From NCBI GenBank assembly GCA_000146465.1, contig CP001950.1: 64,000 nucleotides of DNA; one strand, written 5' to 3'. Position 1 is the first letter of the stretch; the number at the start of each line of letters is the position of its first letter. Positions 4,873-61,764 of this stretch are shown piece after piece. Under the pieces are notes generated by a model, which worked only from the letters and a program-made list of their open reading frames with translations, was not told where the DNA came from and did no database searches. The translations under genes and the position numbers were made by a program.

Positions 4873-4918
4873 ATGGGCGCGGAAGTGGAAGCTTAAAAAA
4901 TACCCCTGCTCTTAGTCC

Positions 4919-5942: not shown

Positions 5943-6667
5943 TCAGTCTACTGTGTACTCAAGCCCGAAGCTTTTTCCATATCCACAGAGCTTCATTGAT
6001 GCGTTGTATGCAGCTCCATCAGTTTCGGAGGAATCACCTGTAGATTTCATCCCCACACAATATAGAAAACACTCCATCGACTCTGTCCTGCTTGCTCTTG
6101 GTTTCAGTAGAACCACTCCATTATAGAATCTCCTGAAGTGGTTAATCATCCATTCTGTGTACTTTCCTTGGAGACACTTGCCCACAAATGAAGAGCCTGG
6201 CTTTGAAATCCTCAAGGAAGCGCTAAGTGCAGACATCAGCAACTCTATTTGGAGATACTCATCTATCTCATGGATTCCGGTTATGTCCGGAGCTCCGTCA
6301 CACATTACAAGGTCTGCCAGTACTCCTTCTAGAGCCTCTACTATACTCCGTAAGCACGAGTCTGAAGTTATATCGCCCTTAATGCACACCACACCCTCCA
6401 TCGGGACAATGTCCTGGACATCCACAGACACTATTTTTGGACATCCCTCCTTGGAAAGCAGCCTTTCGGATGCATACTGAGACCAGCTTCCCGGCGCCGC
6501 ACATAGATCAACACACTTTCAACTCCCTCAAACAGATTGTACTCCTCGTCGATATCAATGAGCTTGTACACGCTTCTGGCTCTGTACTTGTTCTTCTTTG
6601 CAAGTCTGTAATAGACGTCTCTTTTTTCTTCTCCATCCATTCCCGGGGACAAAAACCACATTGCCAT
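5943..6667 (-). CDS. FtsJ/RrmJ-type 2'-O-ribose RNA methyltransferase (Trm7/FtsJ1-like) with an apparent 1-nt frameshift near 6505-6516
   Basis: The N-terminal ORF (6431..6667) reads DVYYRLAKKNKYRARSVYKLIDIDEEYNLFEGVES. The continuation CVDLCAAPGSWSQ...DLVMCDGAPDITG...LLKPRASRTESMECF lies in another frame (ORF 5943..6431). Hand translation of all three frames across 6481..6530 shows the SAM-binding motif VDLCAAPGSW is only in-frame after a +/-1 shift. Confidence 0.65.
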
Positions 6668-7581: not shown

Positions 7582-7650
7582 AATACCCCTTAAAGGACTG
7601 CATTTCCGAAACAAGAACAAATAAATATTTCCTTGGTAGGGGTAACAAAA

Positions 7651-12755: not shown

Positions 12756-12840
12756 CAACAGAATTATAATAAAAGTTTAGCTTTTCCTGTTGAAGCCTTT
12801 GCTTGGAGAAAAGACAAGGACATATATAATATTGAAGAGT

Positions 12841-13992
12841 TTAATGGACTTCGGCGACTGTTTCTGCCTTCTTTGCTCCGTAGAATGCCTTCTTCTCTGC
12901 ACTTGTCTGGAACCGCCCATGTCCTATCTTCGACGATGTGTCGACAAACTTGATCACAAGCTCCTCGCTCGGCCTCTGCTGTGTAAGACTCTTTCGAAGC
13001 GTCACAACCCTCTTCCGTGGCCCGACAACCGCCCCCTTCACCATGATGAAGTCGTTCTTCACTTCTCCATAGTGAGGGAATCCTCCCATCGGCGAAATCG
13101 CCTTCTCGGTTAGGTCAAACTCAGTCTTGATCTTGGTGCTTCCATTTCCAATCATGTACACCCTCTTGTTCTTCTCTGTTCTTCTATGGAACCCCATCTG
13201 CCCTGCTCGTGCAACAGAGTACATCACACGGCTCGGATGCCATGCTCCAATGCATGCAACCTTTCGGATCCCCTTTCGAGACTTGCGCGGCTGCTTTCGT
13301 ACTCCAAACCTCTTCACTGTTCCTTGGAATCCCTTTCCCTTCGTCACCCCAATCACATCGATGTTCTCATTCTCTCCAAACACCTCTGCAATCTGGATCT
13401 CCTTCTCAAGCCTCTCCAGAGCCCACTCAACCTTCTCGCAGATGCTTCCTCCATTCAACTGTATCTCCGCGATGTGTGCTTTCTTCAGCCCAAGTGTCTT
13501 CACCATCTCCGGCTGTGTCTGAACAAGTACTCGCACACACTCTGCCCTCTTCTTGATCTCTTCAACCCGGGACTCCGTCACTTCTCCTCGGCAGAACTGG
13601 GCCGCCGCCTCCTTCTCCATGTACTTGTTACCAAACATCCTGCGGAGAACTCCATCGTTCACATAGGATACCGTGACAATCGGGAGTCTGTGCAGTCCAG
13701 TCACAGTCCTCTCATATCCCACAATCCCATACACAACCATCGGCGGTGCTTCAACCACAGTCACTGCATCCATCACCTCCCTAGAAAGTTGCTTGTTCTT
13801 TGCAACCTGGGTCTTAGTCCTTATCACATGTGTCATCCCTGCCTTGTACCCCATAAATCCAGTCAGATGCACAGGCTGGGAGATATCGTCAGCCGGAAAC
13901 GCCCCTACAGACGGCCTGATTGTCTTCGATCTTTTCCTTGGGCAGAACTGCAAAGATCCATGTCTCGGTGCGTTGAACTTCCTGCAGCTCAT
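12841..13992 (-). CDS. RPL3: 60S ribosomal protein L3 (uL3)
   Basis: [22 protein letters not shown]...[13 protein letters not shown]...[18 protein letters not shown]...[13 protein letters not shown]. Full-length match to uL3. The annotated ATG at 13992 is preceded by the AAATTT+CCC promoter motif. Confidence 0.95.
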
Positions 13993-14013
13993 TTGGCAAG
14001 GGCACAAATTTTT
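13993..14013 (-). promoter_or_regulatory. AAATTT-like + CCC core promoter motif upstream of RPL3 (aaaaatttgtgcccttgccaa-ATG); a second TTGTGCCCTTG copy lies at 14064..14074
   Basis: Read directly on the minus strand. The same architecture is found upstream of RPS3, RPS28, RPS22 and eIF5A in this window. Confidence 0.6.
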
Positions 14014-14123
14014 CCATTAACCGATCTTCTCTCGAAAAGTATCAAACAATGCTAACAACAGGCCCAAGGGCACAATTGAGTGTACTCCCAACCACTTGAT
14101 GGATAGAATTTCCTACCCTACCG

Positions 14124-14405
14124 ATGAGTTTCCATCCGGAGTACAAGGAGTATTTTAAACAAGGATCAACAGCAAAAATATACAATGGAGTGTTTGAGGA
14201 TGCAGGATTCTACGACGAGGTAGACATAAAGGAGTTCAAGTACAACAAGGAGAACAAGACATTCTATTATCCATGTCCTTGCGGGGACAACTTCGAGATA
14301 TCTCTGGAAGATCTAAAGAATGGAGAGATTGCAGCTAGATGTCCTTCTTGTTCCCTTATCATTTGCACGGTGTACGAAGCAGAGGATCTTAAGATGTATC
14401 TCTAG
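14124..14405 (+). CDS. DPH3: diphthamide biosynthesis protein 3 (DPH3/KTI11, CSL zinc finger)
   Basis: YDEVDIKEFKYNKENKTFYYPCPCGDNFEISLEDLKNGEIAARCPSCSLII is the CSL zinc-finger signature. Confidence 0.85.
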   Translation: MSFHPEYKEYFKQGSTAKIYNGVFEDAGFYDEVDIKEFKYNKENKTFYYPCPCGDNFEISLEDLKNGEIAARCPSCSLIICTVYEAEDLKMYL

Positions 14406-15678: not shown

Positions 15679-16431
15679 TTGAATTCCAAGGATTTAGCTC
15701 TGTTTTGCCAGATGGCCAATGCTCTTGTTCTCTGGGAAGGACCCATTGATGAGTTCTCCCGCCAATATCAAAATGTTTTTATGGGCTGGAGGAAGCCTGA
15801 GAGGATGATGAAAAGGGTATTTCAGGACATCACAAATGTCAGTAGAAAGAACATCAAGCTGACAATCCACCGGTCATCACACAGAAGAAAACTGGTCAAA
15901 TGGCTGTACGAGGTGATGGACGACTTCGGATACTCCCAGGTCACATTCTCAACAGCAGTTTTCATCCTGGACAGATACACAGAAGTAAGAGGACTTGACC
16001 TTGGGAAGTACCAGCTGGTGGGGATCTCATCACTCTTCCTCAGTGCAAAGATAGAAGAGAAGAGGTGTAAGGAAATAGATGACTATGTTCATGTCACAGA
16101 CAACACATACTCTAGAAGAGAGATCCTAGACAAGGAGATCGAGATTCTGGAGGTGTTTGGGTTCAATCTGATGTTCAGGCTCCCTCACTCCTTTCTTAAG
16201 GAGAAGTATCTTGAGAAGATGTCCAGCGAATACACTGTGAAGCAATGCCAGGAAATATTCTTTTGTGCATTTTCGTATGTAATAGAGAAGAACATCTGTG
16301 GATCCAGTATGTATTGGATATACCTGGAAGGAATCAAGGAGGCTGAGAAGGTGCTTTCGGGGCATAAGGCAAGCGAAGACTTCAGGTTCTATCTGGAGAA
16401 CAACAGAAGGATTAAAAACATATTTATGTAG
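15679..16431 (+). CDS. cyclin (cyclin-box protein)
   Basis: Cyclin box: KLVKWLYEVMDDFGYSQVTFSTAVFILDRYT...LVGISSLFLSAKIEEK...EIDDYVHVTDNTYSRREILDKEIEIL. The track start codon is non-ATG; the true ATG may be at 15712. Confidence 0.8.
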   Translation: MNSKDLALFCQMANALVLWEGPIDEFSRQYQNVFMGWRKPERMMKRVFQDITNVSRKNIKLTIHRSSHRRKLVKWLYEVMDDFGYSQVTFSTAVFILDRYTEVRGLDLGKYQLVGISSLFLSAKIEEKRCKEIDDYVHVTDNTYSRREILDKEIEILEVFGFNLMFRLPHSFLKEKYLEKMSSEYTVKQCQEIFFCAFSYVIEKNICGSSMYWIYLEGIKEAEKVLSGHKASEDFRFYLENNRRIKNIFM

Positions 16432-30037: not shown

Positions 30038-31171
30038 TCACAGATTGATTTCTTTGTGGGGTTCCAGAACACCCAGGTCTCGGAGCTTGTCGCTCACCAC
30101 AGATGCCTTGACAACATACTTACTTCCAAATCTTCTTACAAGCTCTCCGAGATCTTTACAGCGAAGAAGCTCTTTTTCAAGTTCCCCCAAAAGCTCTTCG
30201 GGAAATACTTCGCGCTCTACTAGTGGAAGAGAAATCCAGGAGGAGCAGAATGACGGAAATATAGTAAACTTACAGGAAGGAAATCCAAGACATGGCTTCC
30301 GACATGTTCTAGATGGCTCCATCCTTTCCGAATCCAACTCTATCCATTCACAACTACTTTCTTCCTCCGAAGATTCCTCTTCTGTGCTTTCAATAACTTC
30401 TGCATCCTCGCAATCTTCCCAATCAGAATCTTCCTCGTAGTCTAAAACTTGTGGAAGCCTTGTAAGGCTGTTTTTCACATAATGTTTCTGTCCTCCAAAT
30501 CCATAGAGAGGTGGCCTAAGCTGGTTGGAAAATTTGATGAAGGATAATCTTCTTGGATCTTGAATGTCTTTTCTTATGCGTATTGTGGAACTGAGAGGAC
30601 TCGAAGGCATGCTGACTGCTGTCTCCTTGTCGAAGCATATTGGGGAAAATAGTCCAAGCATATCCGCCGAAGGCTTCTTTATGCCTTCTACCTGAATAAA
30701 TCTCAGCATACCAGAAGTGTTTGCTTCTTCTTTTTCTGTATCTCTCTCCAAGCCAGAAATCCCTTTATCTTTAGCTTTTTTCTTTCTCGCTCTCTTCAAT
30801 AGGCTTCGAACACCTTTAGAGATTCCATCAAGGCTCTTAAGAAAGTATATATTTCCCTCTCCACTTACTTCCACATCGAAATTGGACTCAACAGCCTTCT
30901 TCAGACTATTTACTCTGTCTTTTCTCCTCTTCGACGTTTTTTTATACGAATATAGGATTTTGTCCATCCAATAGTAGTCCACCTTCTGCTTCCCTTCTAC
31001 TAGGAGAGCTATAAGATCTAGAGGAACCTCTTCTTCTCGTCCTCTCTTCCACTCATGCAGAATCTTTAGCACTTCCGGATGGAATAAAACATCCGTAATC
31101 ATAAAAAGGATAAGAATAAAACAATATAAAGATATTGGGAAGATACAATGGCAATATGTTCTTTCTACCAA
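30038..31171 (-). CDS. chromatin assembly factor 1 large subunit (CAF-1 p150/Cac1-like)
   Basis: RPPLYGFGGQKHYVKNSLTRLPQVLDYEEDSDWEDCEDAEVIESTEEESSEEESS matches the CAF-1 p150 block RPAYYGTWRKRSK...LLDYEVDSDEEWEEEEPGESL (ED domain). A K/R-rich KER-like segment lies upstream. The true start may be the internal Met (31102). Confidence 0.55.
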   Translation of the reverse strand: MVERTYCHCIFPISLYCFILILFMITDVLFHPEVLKILHEWKRGREEEVPLDLIALLVEGKQKVDYYWMDKILYSYKKTSKRRKDRVNSLKKAVESNFDVEVSGEGNIYFLKSLDGISKGVRSLLKRARKKKAKDKGISGLERDTEKEEANTSGMLRFIQVEGIKKPSADMLGLFSPICFDKETAVSMPSSPLSSTIRIRKDIQDPRRLSFIKFSNQLRPPLYGFGGQKHYVKNSLTRLPQVLDYEEDSDWEDCEDAEVIESTEEESSEEESSCEWIELDSERMEPSRTCRKPCLGFPSCKFTIFPSFCSSWISLPLVEREVFPEELLGELEKELLRCKDLGELVRRFGSKYVVKASVVSDKLRDLGVLEPHKEINL

Positions 31172-31370: not shown

Positions 31371-32239
31371 GTGAGGACTCCCACATACGCTCCAATAGCA
31401 GTGCCCTTAATGAATCATATCAACCGTATCCGAGATATACTCATCAACCTTGATTCACAAAGCTCTCTTCATGAAGAAACAGTTGCAGAATGTGCATTGG
31501 TATATTATTATAATGCTGTAAGTAAGTTTCTGAATGGAATCCTCTTCTATGAGGAGAAGTTAAATGAAGTCTTGGAGTCTTTGAACAACAAGCTCAATTC
31601 ACAGAGTGAAAAGGGAATTAACGCGGTCAAAGAAACTCTGGACACACTTCGTAGGCTTAAGGAGACAATACAACCTAAAATCGAATGTCCTTTTAACCAA
31701 CTTTCTCATCCTCCAGAACTAACAAATATTGAAATCCTCGAGTACAACTTCAAAACTTTTGAAGAGTACTTCAAAGCAATCGATAGAATGGTTTCTTCGG
31801 AAGGACAGATTCCATTTGAAGAGTTCAAGGATGCACTCAGGAATGTCTTGCCATATGTCGATTATCCACTGACCCACAGTACAGGATCCCATTCTATTGT
31901 TCTCAAAAACGTATTTCTTCAACTCTTGGGGGAGTATAATGTCTCTGCTGTATTTGAAAATACCTGTCTCAATAAGTATTATGAAAACTTAAGAATAATA
32001 GGAAGAAAAGTTCTCCAGAAGCATTTTGAATCTCTCATAAAAAGTCTTGTCTCAGAAAACTGGAAAAACGAAATAGAAAAGGAACTAAGTGCTTTGGAAA
32101 GGGAGGTATCCCTGGCGTATAAACATCAAAGGAAAAGAATAGAACAAGGAATCCAAGATGCTCGAGCTGTCTTAAACTCCCTTTCTCAGGATGTAACCGA
32201 ACTTCAGGATGAATATGAGAGAATTTTTGGCCTTCTTAT
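31371..32239 (+). CDS. lineage-specific family protein B (paralog of 22060..23571), 3' end lost in assembly gap
   Basis: The N-terminal helical region is collinear with family member A. The ORF runs into the N-run at 32240. Confidence 0.45.
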
Positions 32240-32339
32240 NNNNNNNNNNNNNNNNNNNNNNNNNNNNNNNNNNNNNNNNNNNNNNNNNNNNNNNNNNNNN
32301 NNNNNNNNNNNNNNNNNNNNNNNNNNNNNNNNNNNNNNN
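32240..32339. other. assembly gap (100 N)
   Basis: Run of exactly 100 n characters. Confidence 0.99.
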
Positions 32340-32408
32340 CAGGTCTCGGAGCTTGTCACTCACCACAGATGCCTTAACAATATACTTGTAGGATATGTAT
32401 TTCTTCAT
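32340..32408 (-). pseudogene. duplicated 3'-terminal fragment of the CAF-1-like gene (copy of 30074..30121)
   Basis: 32340..32387 matches 30074..30121 at 45 of 48 nt. It encodes ...KYIVKASVVSDKLRDL, identical to the C-terminus ...KYVVKASVVSDKLRDL of 30038..31171, then diverges. Confidence 0.5.
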
Positions 32409-32654
32409 AGAATATTGGAATAGTATGCATTGGAAAGGGTGGAGTAGCTTGCATCTAAGAGGACATCCTCGAAGTCCTGAGTGTAGTATTCTTGATTATT
32501 AAATATAATTAAAAACTATGCATTGGAAGTATTGGAGGTTAATTATCCTTTTTTACTTGAGTGTTGCAAAGATATGCGATTATCAGGACTACACTATGGA
32601 TCCAACAAGGAGGCCTTTCCCTTGTATGGATTCTGAAGAATCCCAGAGAGATCA

Positions 32655-37505: not shown

Positions 37506-37550
37506 AATCCTTTTTTAAAAAGGCGATAAAATTTTGCCCCTAAAGAAAGG

Positions 37551-37654
37551 ATGCAATTGACAAGGAAGACTAATCAACTGGCTATTCCTGATCTCTCAGG
37601 AAAGGTAACTGTGAAGGATCTACTGGAGGCTTTTTCGAAGTATGAAAAGGAAAT
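37551..37654 (+). CDS. RRM RNA-binding protein, exon 1 (two-RRM protein)
   Basis: ATG at 37551, preceded by ccccTAAAGAAAGG. Encodes MQLTRKTNQLAIPDLSGKVTVKDLLEAFSKYEKE and ends in phase 2 immediately before GTAAGT. Confidence 0.6.
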
Positions 37655-37729
37655 GTAAGTGAAGATAAAGTATCCTTGGTTCGTGAAACTGAGCCATGAT
37701 GAGAACTTTGGGCAGATACTAACTTTTAG
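37655..37729 (+). other. spliceosomal intron (75 nt): 5' GTAAGTG ... TACTAAC (37717..37723) ... TTTTAG 3'
   Basis: GTAAGT at 37655. A perfect yeast-type branch site TACTAAC lies 6 nt upstream of the AG at 37728..37729. The intron contains the in-frame TAA (37656) that otherwise splits the gene. Removal joins at|a to an Ile codon and keeps the RRM reading frame. Confidence 0.65.
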
Positions 37730-38183
37730 AACAAGCGTCAAGCTTAGCAAGCAAAGGAGATCAAGAGATGAGGATCTCAAGGTTGGATATGTTGAGTTTG
37801 AAACGGTTGAGGATACGGAAAAGGCCTATGGAGAGGGAAGCATCAAGGTTGGGGGAGAGATGAAGGCTCTACACTATGCAAAGAGAAAGGACCAAAGAAT
37901 GAGAGAACGGGTTGTTGTTTCTAACAAGAAGGTGTATATTTCTGGAATTCCCGAGGATACCGACAAGGACGAGCTTTCTGCACTCTTGGGAAATTGCAGG
38001 ATATCTGGAGGAGACAAGGGCAAAAGCTATCTTTTTGCAGAGTATGACAACAGCGAGGAACAGGAGAAGGCACTGAACAGAATCAATAACTCGAAGATCA
38101 AAGGCTCTAAGTTGTTTGCAACTCAAGCATATGAAAAGGCAAACATTGGAAGAACTGGTAGAAAGAGGAGCGATTCCAATTAA
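37730..38183 (+). CDS. RRM RNA-binding protein, exon 2
   Basis: RNP1-like GYVEFETVEDTEKAY closes RRM1. A second RRM follows: KVYISGIPEDTDKDELSALLGNC...KSYLFAEYDNSEEQEKAL...IKGSKLF. Confidence 0.7.
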
Positions 38184-44719: not shown

Positions 44720-44796
44720 TTGCTCTGGGGACTCTCGGCCGATGAAATTCTGCAGAGATTTGATATAAACTCAAATTTCTTCCCTATAAAGGCATT

Positions 44797-49317: not shown

Positions 49318-49358
49318 AATTTGCATTGGTCTTATTTTTGGTGTTCCAAGGAAAAAAG

Positions 49359-49379
49359 GAAAATTCGTATAGCCCTGAA
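49359..49379 (+). promoter_or_regulatory. AAATTC + CCC core promoter motif upstream of eIF5A (ggaaaattcgtatagccctgaa-ATG)
   Basis: Same architecture as upstream of the ribosomal protein genes in this window. Confidence 0.5.
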
Positions 49380-52086: not shown

Positions 52087-52473
52087 TTAATAGAAGTATC
52101 CAAGGATTCTTCCTCCAACATTTTCTGTCAGACATTCCTTGTGGTCGAGGATACCTTTGGATGTATTGAACAGGACATGTCCGAACTGTCTAGCAGGAAG
52201 AAGCCTCTCTCTGAAGTTCTCAATCCCATCTCGCTTAACGATGTAGTTAGGAGAAATAGCTCCGCATCTGTTAAGCCTGCCGTTCAGGTCGATAATGCTC
52301 TTTCCACTTCTTTTGTCATGTATATAGGAAAACCCTGAGATATAGCCGTACTTCAGCATCTGGAGAAGAAACATACGCATCTCCTCTGTTGAGAACTTCA
52401 GGAGGAGCTGTCTCTTTCCTGCTCTACTGGCATTGTTGATAGCCTTGCACATGTTGGCCAATTCTGCGCTCAT
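52087..52473 (-). CDS. RPS22: 40S ribosomal protein S22/S15a (uS8)
   Basis: [25 protein letters not shown]...[39 protein letters not shown]...[23 protein letters not shown]...GGRILGYFY is collinear with eukaryotic S15a. The upstream part of the track ORF is non-coding leader. Confidence 0.9.
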
Positions 52474-52496
52474 TTCAAGGGGCAAATTTTTCTCTG
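52474..52496 (-). promoter_or_regulatory. AAATTT + CCCC core promoter motif upstream of RPS22 (cagagaaaaatttgccccttgaa-ATG on minus strand)
   Basis: Read directly from the sequence. Confidence 0.55.
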
Positions 52497-58535: not shown

Positions 58536-58557
58536 AAAAAATTTATCCCTATTAAGG
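58536..58557 (+). promoter_or_regulatory. AAATTT + CCC core promoter motif upstream of RPS28 (aaaaaatttatccctattaagg-ATG)
   Basis: Read directly from the sequence. Confidence 0.55.
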
Positions 58558-58755
58558 ATGGAAGATCAGCAAGAATTTTTCGGAAAGGTTACACAGGTGC
58601 TTGGGAGAACTGGAGGATCTGGGCTACTGACCCAGGTGAAGATGGAGCTTATCCATAACAAGAGAATGATCCAGAGGGCGATCAAGGGGCCGATAAGCGA
58701 GGGGGACTTTGTCGAGATATTAGAGTGTGAGCGTGAGCATCGAAGAACAAGGTAG
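58558..58755 (+). CDS. RPS28: 40S ribosomal protein S28 (eS28)
   Basis: GKVTQVLGRTGGSGLLTQVKMELI...RMIQRAIKGPISEGDFVEILECEREHRRTR aligns with eS28 ([23 protein letters not shown]...[26 protein letters not shown]). Confidence 0.9.
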   Translation: MEDQQEFFGKVTQVLGRTGGSGLLTQVKMELIHNKRMIQRAIKGPISEGDFVEILECEREHRRTR

Positions 58756-60903: not shown

Positions 60904-61094
60904 AGATTATTTATTTCCAAAGGTGTTCCTTAATCTACCTAGTAAAGACGTTGCCCGAGAAATGTCATTTTTATATTCCTAGAGTTAGAGGGAATTCACT
61001 TACCTGTAAAATGTCGTTGTATCTATCAAGAACTTCTTCCAGAGACTTCTCGAAACTATCCATTGGTAGGGTGTCTTTGGATGATTTCAGGAAA

Positions 61095-61113
61095 TAAAAA
61101 ATTTACCCTGGAA
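61095..61113 (+). promoter_or_regulatory. AAATTT + CCC core promoter motif upstream of RPS3 (aaaaaatttaccctggaa-ATG)
   Basis: Read directly from the sequence. Confidence 0.55.
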
Positions 61114-61764
61114 ATGAGCGATGACCAAGTTCTGAAAAGGTTTATGAAGAATGGACTTATGAATGCAGAGCTGAAGGAGTTTTTTGAGAAGGCACTTGTG
61201 AATGAAGGCTTTAATACTATGGAGCTTCGGATGCAGGAGACTCCGATTAAGATTATTTTAAAGGTTGCAAAGCCACACGAGGCAATAGGAGAAAAGAAAT
61301 ACAGGCTAAAGCAATTCCAGCACTTAGTTGCCCAGAGGCTTGAGGTTCCCGATGAAAATGTCGAGATAATTGTTGAAAAGGTCCACGAAAAGGGACTCTG
61401 TGCACTTATCCAGGCCAATTTTATCAGGGAGAAGATGCTGGGAGGAGTACAGTACAGGAGGTCGGTTAACATGGCCCTGAAGGCTGTAAGACATTCGGGA
61501 GCACAAGGATGCCAGATAATAGTTAGTGGAAAGCTGAAAGGGCAGCGTGCCAAATCCGTAAAGTTCCAGGATGGAGTGTTAATTCACAGTGGAAACCCAG
61601 TCAAAGACTATATTGATACGGGATATGCCACGGTTGAAACCAAGCAGGGAGTGATTGGAATTCAAGTTAGAATAATGCTGCCATACGATCCGGAAGGAGT
61701 GCTTGGGCCAAGCTACCCTCTTCCTGATAGGATTACCATTCTTGAGCCTAACGAAATTCAATAA
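61114..61764 (+). CDS. RPS3: 40S ribosomal protein S3 (uS3)
   Basis: KH domain and GLCALIQANFIREKMLGG...MALKAVRHSGAQGCQIIVSGKLKGQRAKSVKFQDGVLIHSGNPV...QGVIGIQVRIMLPYDP are collinear with human RPS3. Confidence 0.95.
   Translation: MSDDQVLKRFMKNGLMNAELKEFFEKALVNEGFNTMELRMQETPIKIILKVAKPHEAIGEKKYRLKQFQHLVAQRLEVPDENVEIIVEKVHEKGLCALIQANFIREKMLGGVQYRRSVNMALKAVRHSGAQGCQIIVSGKLKGQRAKSVKFQDGVLIHSGNPVKDYIDTGYATVETKQGVIGIQVRIMLPYDPEGVLGPSYPLPDRITILEPNEIQ

Follow-up and report, generated by a model that had tools for sequence, protein, structure and literature searches.

Most genes in a 64,000-nucleotide (nt) stretch of microsporidian DNA (GenBank assembly GCA_000146465.1, contig CP001950.1; the whole stretch is referred to as the window) carry a short run of cytosines, CCC, on the sense strand immediately before the start codon, and all four ribosomal-protein genes in it have an AAATTT element directly 5' of that run. 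The pattern is genuine and has very strong statistical support, and it is highly probable that AAATTT and CCC serve Microsporidia as proximal RNA polymerase II (Pol II) promoter signals. None of this is new: the feature is textbook-level in microsporidian genomics and is built into annotation software. A sequence-only reading of this DNA had matched the motifs to the transcription-start signals described for microsporidia, and the window indeed reproduces every sequence-level feature of the accounts published in 2009 (vide infra).

The window is from Encephalitozoon intestinalis. The species was recognized by homology search, an exact-sequence look-up with the RPL3 of the window having yielded no match. 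A 21-kilobase (kb) stretch of CP075166.1 is 99.97% identical to window positions 2842-23992, and two further E. intestinalis loci match at 99.9-100%, covering nearly all of the remainder up to 63961. Gene density is very high, with 63 annotated genes in about 61 kb, 52 kb of it coding. The 63 annotated start codons were transferred onto the window from public E. intestinalis assemblies.

A sense-strand CCC is present no more than 15 nt upstream of 45 of these 63 starts (71%), irrespective of gene function, as compared with 9.5% of 2218 other ATGs (Fisher p = 1.7e-30) and 12 of 252 internal in-frame ATGs (4.8%). The signal is specific to the strand, since GGG occurs in the same 15 nt at 11 of 63 genes, and to position: CCC triplets start between -16 and -3; beyond that range on the 5' side, and also within the initial 60 nt of coding sequence, their frequency is at background level. 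The final C and the ATG are separated by a median of 4.5 nt, and the distance ranges up to 12 nt with one case of 20. The composition of individual positions follows the same layout, with A+T at 74-82% and C at 4-14% between -28 and -23, a C peak of 46% at -6, 47% A at -1 and 72% A or G at +4. When k-mer enrichment in the 30 nt upstream is assessed without bias toward any motif, CCC and CCCC rank highest (p ~1e-17), followed by AATT, AAAATT, AAATT, AATTT and AAATTT.

Annotators may have chosen start codons by the motif, and circularity was controlled for with the 49 genes in which no in-frame ATG stands between the upstream stop and the annotated start. As the open reading frame (ORF) of these genes offers no earlier ATG, a motif-guided choice was impossible and the test is not circular. 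CCC is found in 36 of the 49 (73%), and a first-ATG rule applied to all genes gives 37 of 63. Where CCC is absent within 20 nt, GGG is present within the same distance at 7 of 18 genes (p = 0.014), and CCC and GGG together account for 83% of the 63 genes.

The AAATTT element is far more restricted. In its strict form, A5-6TTT-N1-3-CCC, it precedes four of four ribosomal-protein genes and none of the 59 others (Fisher p = 1.7e-6). Eight of the 22 AAATTT sites in the window lie 9-32 nt 5' of a start codon (binomial p = 3e-8), at the four ribosomal-protein genes and, outside that class, at a two-RRM gene (37551), a 153-amino-acid (153-aa) protein (44797), a lectin-like gene (25862) and an LRR gene (43919). 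There is no overall enrichment, as dinucleotide shuffles predict 41 sites; selection against stray AAATTT promoter motifs was considered and dropped, because a second-order Markov expectation gives an observed/expected ratio of 0.92. The raw count of the composite AAATTT-N0-4-CCC is likewise not raised over shuffles (8 listed matches, representing 7 distinct sites, vs 5.3 expected), but of the seven distinct sites, six have the position and orientation expected of a promoter (p = 2e-12). The signal of the composite motif is thus carried by position and orientation only.

The sequence-only reading had assigned A5-6TTT followed by CCC to six genes. Pfam and homology confirm the identity of all six, namely RPL3, RPS3, RPS28, RPS22 (Ribosomal_S8, = uS8), eIF5A and deoxyhypusine synthase (DHS), and the motif holds exactly for the first four. 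The strings that had been quoted for these four are found exactly: aaaaatttgtgcccttgccaaATG for RPL3 at 14013..13990 (-), aaaaatttgccccttgaaATG for RPS22, the Ribosomal_S8 gene, at 52491..52471 (-), aaaaaatttatccctattaaggATG for RPS28 at 58536-58560 (+) and aaaaaatttaccctggaaATG for RPS3 at 61096-61116 (+). Their AAATTT-to-CCC spacers are 1-3 nt rather than the 2-4 nt that had been given, and the end of the CCC is 5-8 nt from the ATG. The remaining two genes are only approximate. The degenerate AAATTT-like element of eIF5A has one mismatch and a 6-nt spacer to CCC, and the DHS string AAAAAATACCCC is an A-rich tract with a CCC box, lacking TTT, and is not AAATTT. The CCCC of DHS stops 12 nt before the ATG; in E. 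cuniculi it adjoins the ATG directly. A CCC box unaccompanied by AAATTT had also been noted at four genes, and is present at Rab (39821-), MCM (49977+), RuvBL (46365+) and GPI8 (19142+).

These features correspond closely to published signals. Cornman et al. (2009, PMC2685015) used MEME to identify a sense-strand cytosine triplet no more than 15 nt from gene starts in N. ceranae as well as E. cuniculi, enriched at -10 to -3, along with a TATA-like peak near -27 in N. ceranae. Peyretaillade et al. (2009, PMC2803860) described a CCC-like signal at most genes with a GGG-like alternative, together with an AAATTT-like signal 5' of CCC, which was found at every ribosomal-protein gene in five species and also at some genes for abundant proteins; rapid amplification of cDNA ends (RACE) at six E. 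cuniculi genes gave 5' untranslated regions (UTRs) of 1-7 nt, and the signals were used to correct 18% of start codons. Later Encephalitozoon genome work employs these signals (PMC4589312), as does the workflow of MicroAnnot (2024), which was validated through re-annotation of E. intestinalis (PMC10815200). The CCC/GGG-like signal of the window agrees with the published one in position, strand, use by a majority of genes, a GGG minority and A/T-rich preceding sequence, with no substantive difference. The AAATTT element is likewise in the published place, directly 5' of CCC at all ribosomal-protein genes, whereas eIF5A and DHS here are degenerate or A-rich only. The AAATTT of RPS28 is palindromic and also lies 27 nt 5' of a divergent 171-aa gene (ATG 58511, minus strand), so that one palindrome is common to both genes, comparable to the published S16/L13 case.

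The signals are also conserved in other Microsporidia. Nine other microsporidian sequences, from taxa as distant as Nematocida, have AAATTT..CCC before RPL3, in flanks that have diverged. Examples are E. cuniculi (GGGAAAAATTTGTGCCCTTATCAA) and E. hellem (GCGAAAAATTTGCGCCCTTACTAA) among the Encephalitozoon relatives, and Ordospora (GCAAATTTTTCGTGCCCTCTATCA), Vittaforma (AAAATTTTTCGTTTCTTGCCCACCA), Hamiltosporidium (AAAAATATTTTTTTACCCTAAAAA, in which the element takes the form AAATATTT) and Nematocida displodere (TTTAAATTTTTACTCCCTTGTAA) among other genera. The nine include two relatives from sequencing-run assemblies (Logan contigs). These contigs were considered as possible transcript 5' ends and rejected, as they reach 65-68 nt 5' of the ATG, have no poly(A) and are indistinguishable from genomic DNA. 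In 24 syntenic gene pairs of E. intestinalis and E. cuniculi, the C-run (or G-run) beside the ATG is retained in most, despite changed surroundings. Rad52, Got1 and a Homeodomain gene remain GGG-type in E. cuniculi, and the first two also in Ordospora. CCC is present at 11 of 16 Ordospora genes, and in a small Nematocida sample at only two of nine, RPL3 being one of them. The E. cuniculi strings given in a supplementary table for S3 (AAATAAAAAATTTGCCCTCGAA), S28 (AAAAATTTATCCCTACTAAGG) and S15A (AAAATTTTACCCTTCGAA) (Peyretaillade 2009, PMC2803860) are near-identical to those of RPS3, RPS28 and RPS22 in the window.

Signals that lie within about 30 nt of the ATG can aid the right choice of start codon. 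For six genes and RPS3 this was examined with ortholog N-termini, which are independent of the annotation. An upstream in-frame ATG exists in the E. intestinalis ORFs of unk204, DFRP, SPC22 and FtsJ (CCC-type) and of Rad52 and Homeodomain (GGG-type). All six resulting N-terminal extensions are missing or unrelated in E. cuniculi and Ordospora, and the N-terminus is conserved from the motif-proximal ATG. The RPS3 promoter falls within the longest ORF, which begins at 61081. In this long ORF, residue 12 is where the alignment with the uS3 chain of the E. cuniculi ribosome (7QEP_S3, 216 aa) begins, and other microsporidian uS3 chains likewise align from ATG 61114; a start at 61114, and not at 61081, is therefore supported. 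The E. cuniculi S3 gene is flagged as having a mispredicted start in the published supplementary table (PMC2803860). Start calls had been expected to be unusually reliable here. The motif-proximal ATG does match the orthologs, but the calls are helped by the signal rather than made fully reliable by it, because 18 of 63 genes have no CCC within 20 nt. As an annotation aid in very compact microsporidian genomes, the signal beats the longest-ORF rule at RPS3, SPC22, DFRP and FtsJ.

The arrangement of most genes, read along the sense strand, consists of an A/T-rich and C-poor stretch at about -28 to -23, a C triplet or quadruplet at -16 to -3, an A-rich -2/-1, the ATG, and A or G at +4. If 5' RACE in E. 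cuniculi is a guide, transcription would start 1-7 nt before the ATG, just 3' of the C-run, and the CCC box would therefore be a start-site-proximal core-promoter element. Ribosomal-protein genes, along with a few others that are related to translation or encode abundant proteins, have an extra A(3-6)T(3-4) element 1-3 nt 5' of CCC that may mark a co-regulated, highly expressed gene class. Some resemblance exists to the TCT/5'TOP initiator of metazoan ribosomal-protein genes, which is also a class-specific core promoter with a pyrimidine run around the start site (here CCCTT, CCCCTT or CCCTAT). In the window, however, the C-run is common to most genes, and the class-specific part is the upstream AAATTT.

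Several points weigh against these signals being promoter elements of this kind. To our knowledge, no factor is known to bind either the CCC or the AAATTT element, and the ribosomal-protein sample of the window consists of four genes. CCC is absent within 20 nt of more than a quarter of genes (18 of 63), just seven of which have GGG. Where the transcription start site (TSS) lies with respect to CCC is taken over from six genes of E. cuniculi rather than from E. intestinalis 5' ends; some E. cuniculi RACE products start far upstream, and spore-stage transcripts reportedly have longer UTRs and a larger number of start sites (PMC3629993). Finally, AAATTT would lie at about -8 to -20 from the presumed TSS, which does not fit the usual TATA-to-TSS distance.

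The last point bears on the possible but doubtful reading of AAATTT as the TATA box of strong promoters, a site for TBP with no separate class element. Canonical TBP-to-TSS geometry would place AAATTT about 10 base pairs (bp) too near if the TSS is 1-7 nt from the ATG, these being ATG-based distances, and the element fails the TATAWAW consensus. It does resemble a canonical TATA box in being an A/T-rich element 5' of the start site with a possible association with strong expression; it takes the place of the general A/T-rich region or lengthens it, the A/T tract of RPS3 spans -25 to -10, and a TATA-like role was suggested by Peyretaillade et al. (PMC2803860). The A/T peak of the window as a whole, however, is itself at a TATA-like distance (-28 to -23), whereas AAATTT spans -22 to -10 in the four ribosomal-protein genes, and RPL3 additionally has a separate conserved TTAAT at -28 to -24. 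Because it is some 8-10 bp nearer the ATG than the general peak, AAATTT is more likely a class-specific or DNA-melting-easing element than a canonical TATA box. A sharper version of this can be offered only tentatively: AAATTT may be a position-locked cis-element of a translation-apparatus regulon, 1-3 nt from the CCC box and about 10 bp from the start site, which is read by a factor or eases melting and is no TATA surrogate.

Explanations that do not involve promoters are considerably weaker. The CCC box, and perhaps AAATTT, could act on RNA as a site at which overlapping or polycistronic transcripts are cleaved into monocistronic mRNAs. Overlapping transcripts and transcripts that span several genes are on record for E. 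cuniculi and A. locustae and the motif is strictly on the sense strand, but this seems improbable: each gene of the divergent pairs RPL3/DPH3, RPS28/171-aa gene and RPS22/147-aa gene has its own sense-strand signals, in intergenic regions of 46-131 bp that have no co-directional gene upstream. We know of no such 5'-processing machinery in Microsporidia, and an A/T peak at a TATA-like distance goes along with the motif both in the window and in N. ceranae (PMC2685015). Scarcely more credible, and if anything less so, is a translational leader signal, Kozak- or Shine-Dalgarno-like, that guides AUG choice. The sense-strand specificity of the C-run, its tight linkage to the AUG (-16 to -3) and the overlap of the C peak at -6 to -3 with a would-be Kozak region would all suit this role. 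With 5' UTRs of 1-7 nt, as in E. cuniculi, most C-runs would nevertheless fall 5' of the transcript and AAATTT would stay untranscribed, and a GGG-like alternative is hard to reconcile with base-pairing to a single ribosomal RNA site. These two explanations and the TATA box fit the divergent pairs and the geometry less well than proximal promoter signals do. Chance, or a base-composition artefact of short intergenic regions, has a negligible probability; the unraised counts of AAATTT (22 vs 41 expected) and of the composite (8 vs 5.3) would be in its favor, but the positional statistics already refute it, as do strand specificity, the non-circular subset, cross-genus conservation and class specificity.

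The RPL3 locus bears on how small such a promoter may be. RPL3 is a 383-aa ORF at 12841-13992 (-), and its product is 100% identical to the E. intestinalis ATCC 50506 protein, 87% identical to those of E. hellem and E. cuniculi and 73% identical to that of Ordospora. RPL3 is present twice in E. intestinalis, once on chromosome CP075166 (window 12816-14020, -) and once on CP075160 (9973-11177 of the fetched locus). The copies share an identity block of 1205 nt with three mismatches (99.75%) whose limits are exactly -28 and +25 past the stop, with unrelated sequence on either side. This suggests gene conversion confined to the transcription unit and a 28-nt promoter, and it is consistent with, though not proof of, a self-sufficient promoter within 28 bp. 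If AAATTT is a regulon element as tentatively proposed above, a complete high-output Pol II promoter would be contained in 28 bp, given that the RPL3 copies share only -28 to +25. Biologically, the signal shows how small a Pol II promoter can become in a eukaryote. Of the RPL3 loci fetched from relatives, that of E. cuniculi corresponds to the first location and that of E. hellem to the second.

Upstream of RPL3 there is also an exact 11-nt direct repeat, CAAGGGCACAA, at 13997-14007 and 14065-14075. The second copy of CAAGGGCACAA is not present at the second RPL3 copy or at the fetched RPL3 loci of other species. The range 13990-14075, to which the conserved signal had been assigned, does contain the RPL3 instance and takes in this second 11-mer copy as well; the motifs of the other genes lie outside it. 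A bacterial promoter and terminator scan of 13900-14200 yielded no match, and is not relevant to a eukaryote. The coordinates of these and the other promoter regions are collected in Table 1.

Table 1. Probable promoter regions and related upstream features in the window
Feature	Coordinates	Strand	Arrangement and remarks
RPL3 proximal promoter	13993..14013	-	AAAAATTT (14013-14006), GTG, CCC (14002-14000), TTGCCAA, ATG 13992-13990
28 nt 5' of RPL3 ATG	13993..14020	-	TTAATGGAAAAATTTGTGCCCTTGCCAA; sole upstream sequence common with the second RPL3 copy on CP075160
Second copy of RPL3 CCC-box core	14065..14075	-	TTGTGCCCTTG; 68 nt 5' of the first copy; no ATG after
DPH3 (Zn_ribbon_CSL) promoter, divergent RPL3 neighbor	14106..14123	+	GAATTTCCTACCCTACCG, then ATG 14124; GGAATTTTCTACCCC kept in E. 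cuniculi
RPS22/uS8 promoter	52474..52491	-	AAAAATTT-G-CCCC-TTGAA, ATG 52473-52471; PF00410
RPS28 promoter	58536..58557	+	AAAAAATTT-AT-CCC-TATTAAGG, ATG 58558; PF01200
RPS3 promoter	61096..61113	+	AAAAAATTT-A-CCC-TGGAA, ATG 61114
eIF5A upstream region	49352..49379	+	A6-GG-AAAATTC (49360-49366), GTATAG, CCC (49373-49375), TGAA, ATG 49380
DHS upstream region	4895..4918	+	AAAAAATA (4895-4902), CCCC (4903-4906), 12 nt, ATG 4919; PF01916
Two-RRM gene promoter	37528..37550	+	AAAATTTT-G-CCCC-TAAAGAAAGG; ortholog of ECU09_1470
153-aa protein upstream region	44773..44796	+	AAATTT-CTT-CCC-TATAAAGGCATT; ATG 44797

Among the genes outside the ribosomal class, the two-RRM gene at 37551-38183 (+) has a promoter of the ribosomal-protein type (AAAATTTTGCCCC). 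It is composed of exon 1 (37551-37654), a 75-nt intron (37655-37729) with the form GTAAGT...TACTAAC...AG, and exon 2 (37730-38183). Its E. cuniculi ortholog, ECU09_1470, is known for having the longest and best-spliced intron, and is one of the genes in a supplementary table of highly abundant spore proteins from E. cuniculi (PMC2803860). The string given for ECU09_1470 in that 2009 supplement matches within the now-annotated intron, and the exon-1 promoter with AAATTT and CCC is therefore absent from the list. The signal also points to a hidden 5' exon in the ECU09_1470 ortholog. The 153-aa protein was considered as a possible ribosome-associated factor of the solved microsporidian ribosomes, and this was rejected, as it has no PDB relative and no Pfam match.

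The divergent Rad52/Got1 pair has a common 69-bp intergenic region (7582-7650) in which both genes have a GGG-like signal (AAGGGGTA...) and not CCC, an arrangement that is kept in E. cuniculi and Ordospora. The annotated start of a cyclin gene at 15781-16431 (+), beginning MGWRKPERMMKR..., has no match in the orthologs, which have MKRVF as their N-terminus. To judge from these orthologs, the true start could lie 8-9 codons further downstream, and the conserved sequence upstream of that position is GCCTGA, which is CCC-like with one degenerate base.

Some differences between assemblies were also detected. The window includes a gap of 100 Ns at 32240-32339, and the segment 30122-32339 has no counterpart in the E. 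intestinalis alignments; these ~2.2 kb are missing from the newer CP075166.1 at the corresponding position. The segment contains the whole of an ORF at 31410-32423 (+) and most of an ORF at 30038-31102 (-), and near-identical 48-nt stretches lie on its two sides. This difference could be due to an assembly artefact or to an indel between strains. Compared with the intact gene of CP075166.1, which encodes 232 aa, the FtsJ methyltransferase gene at 5943-6640 (-) is frameshifted beyond about codon 43; the frameshift is the sole gap in the 21-kb alignment to that sequence, and is probably a sequencing error in the assembly of the window.

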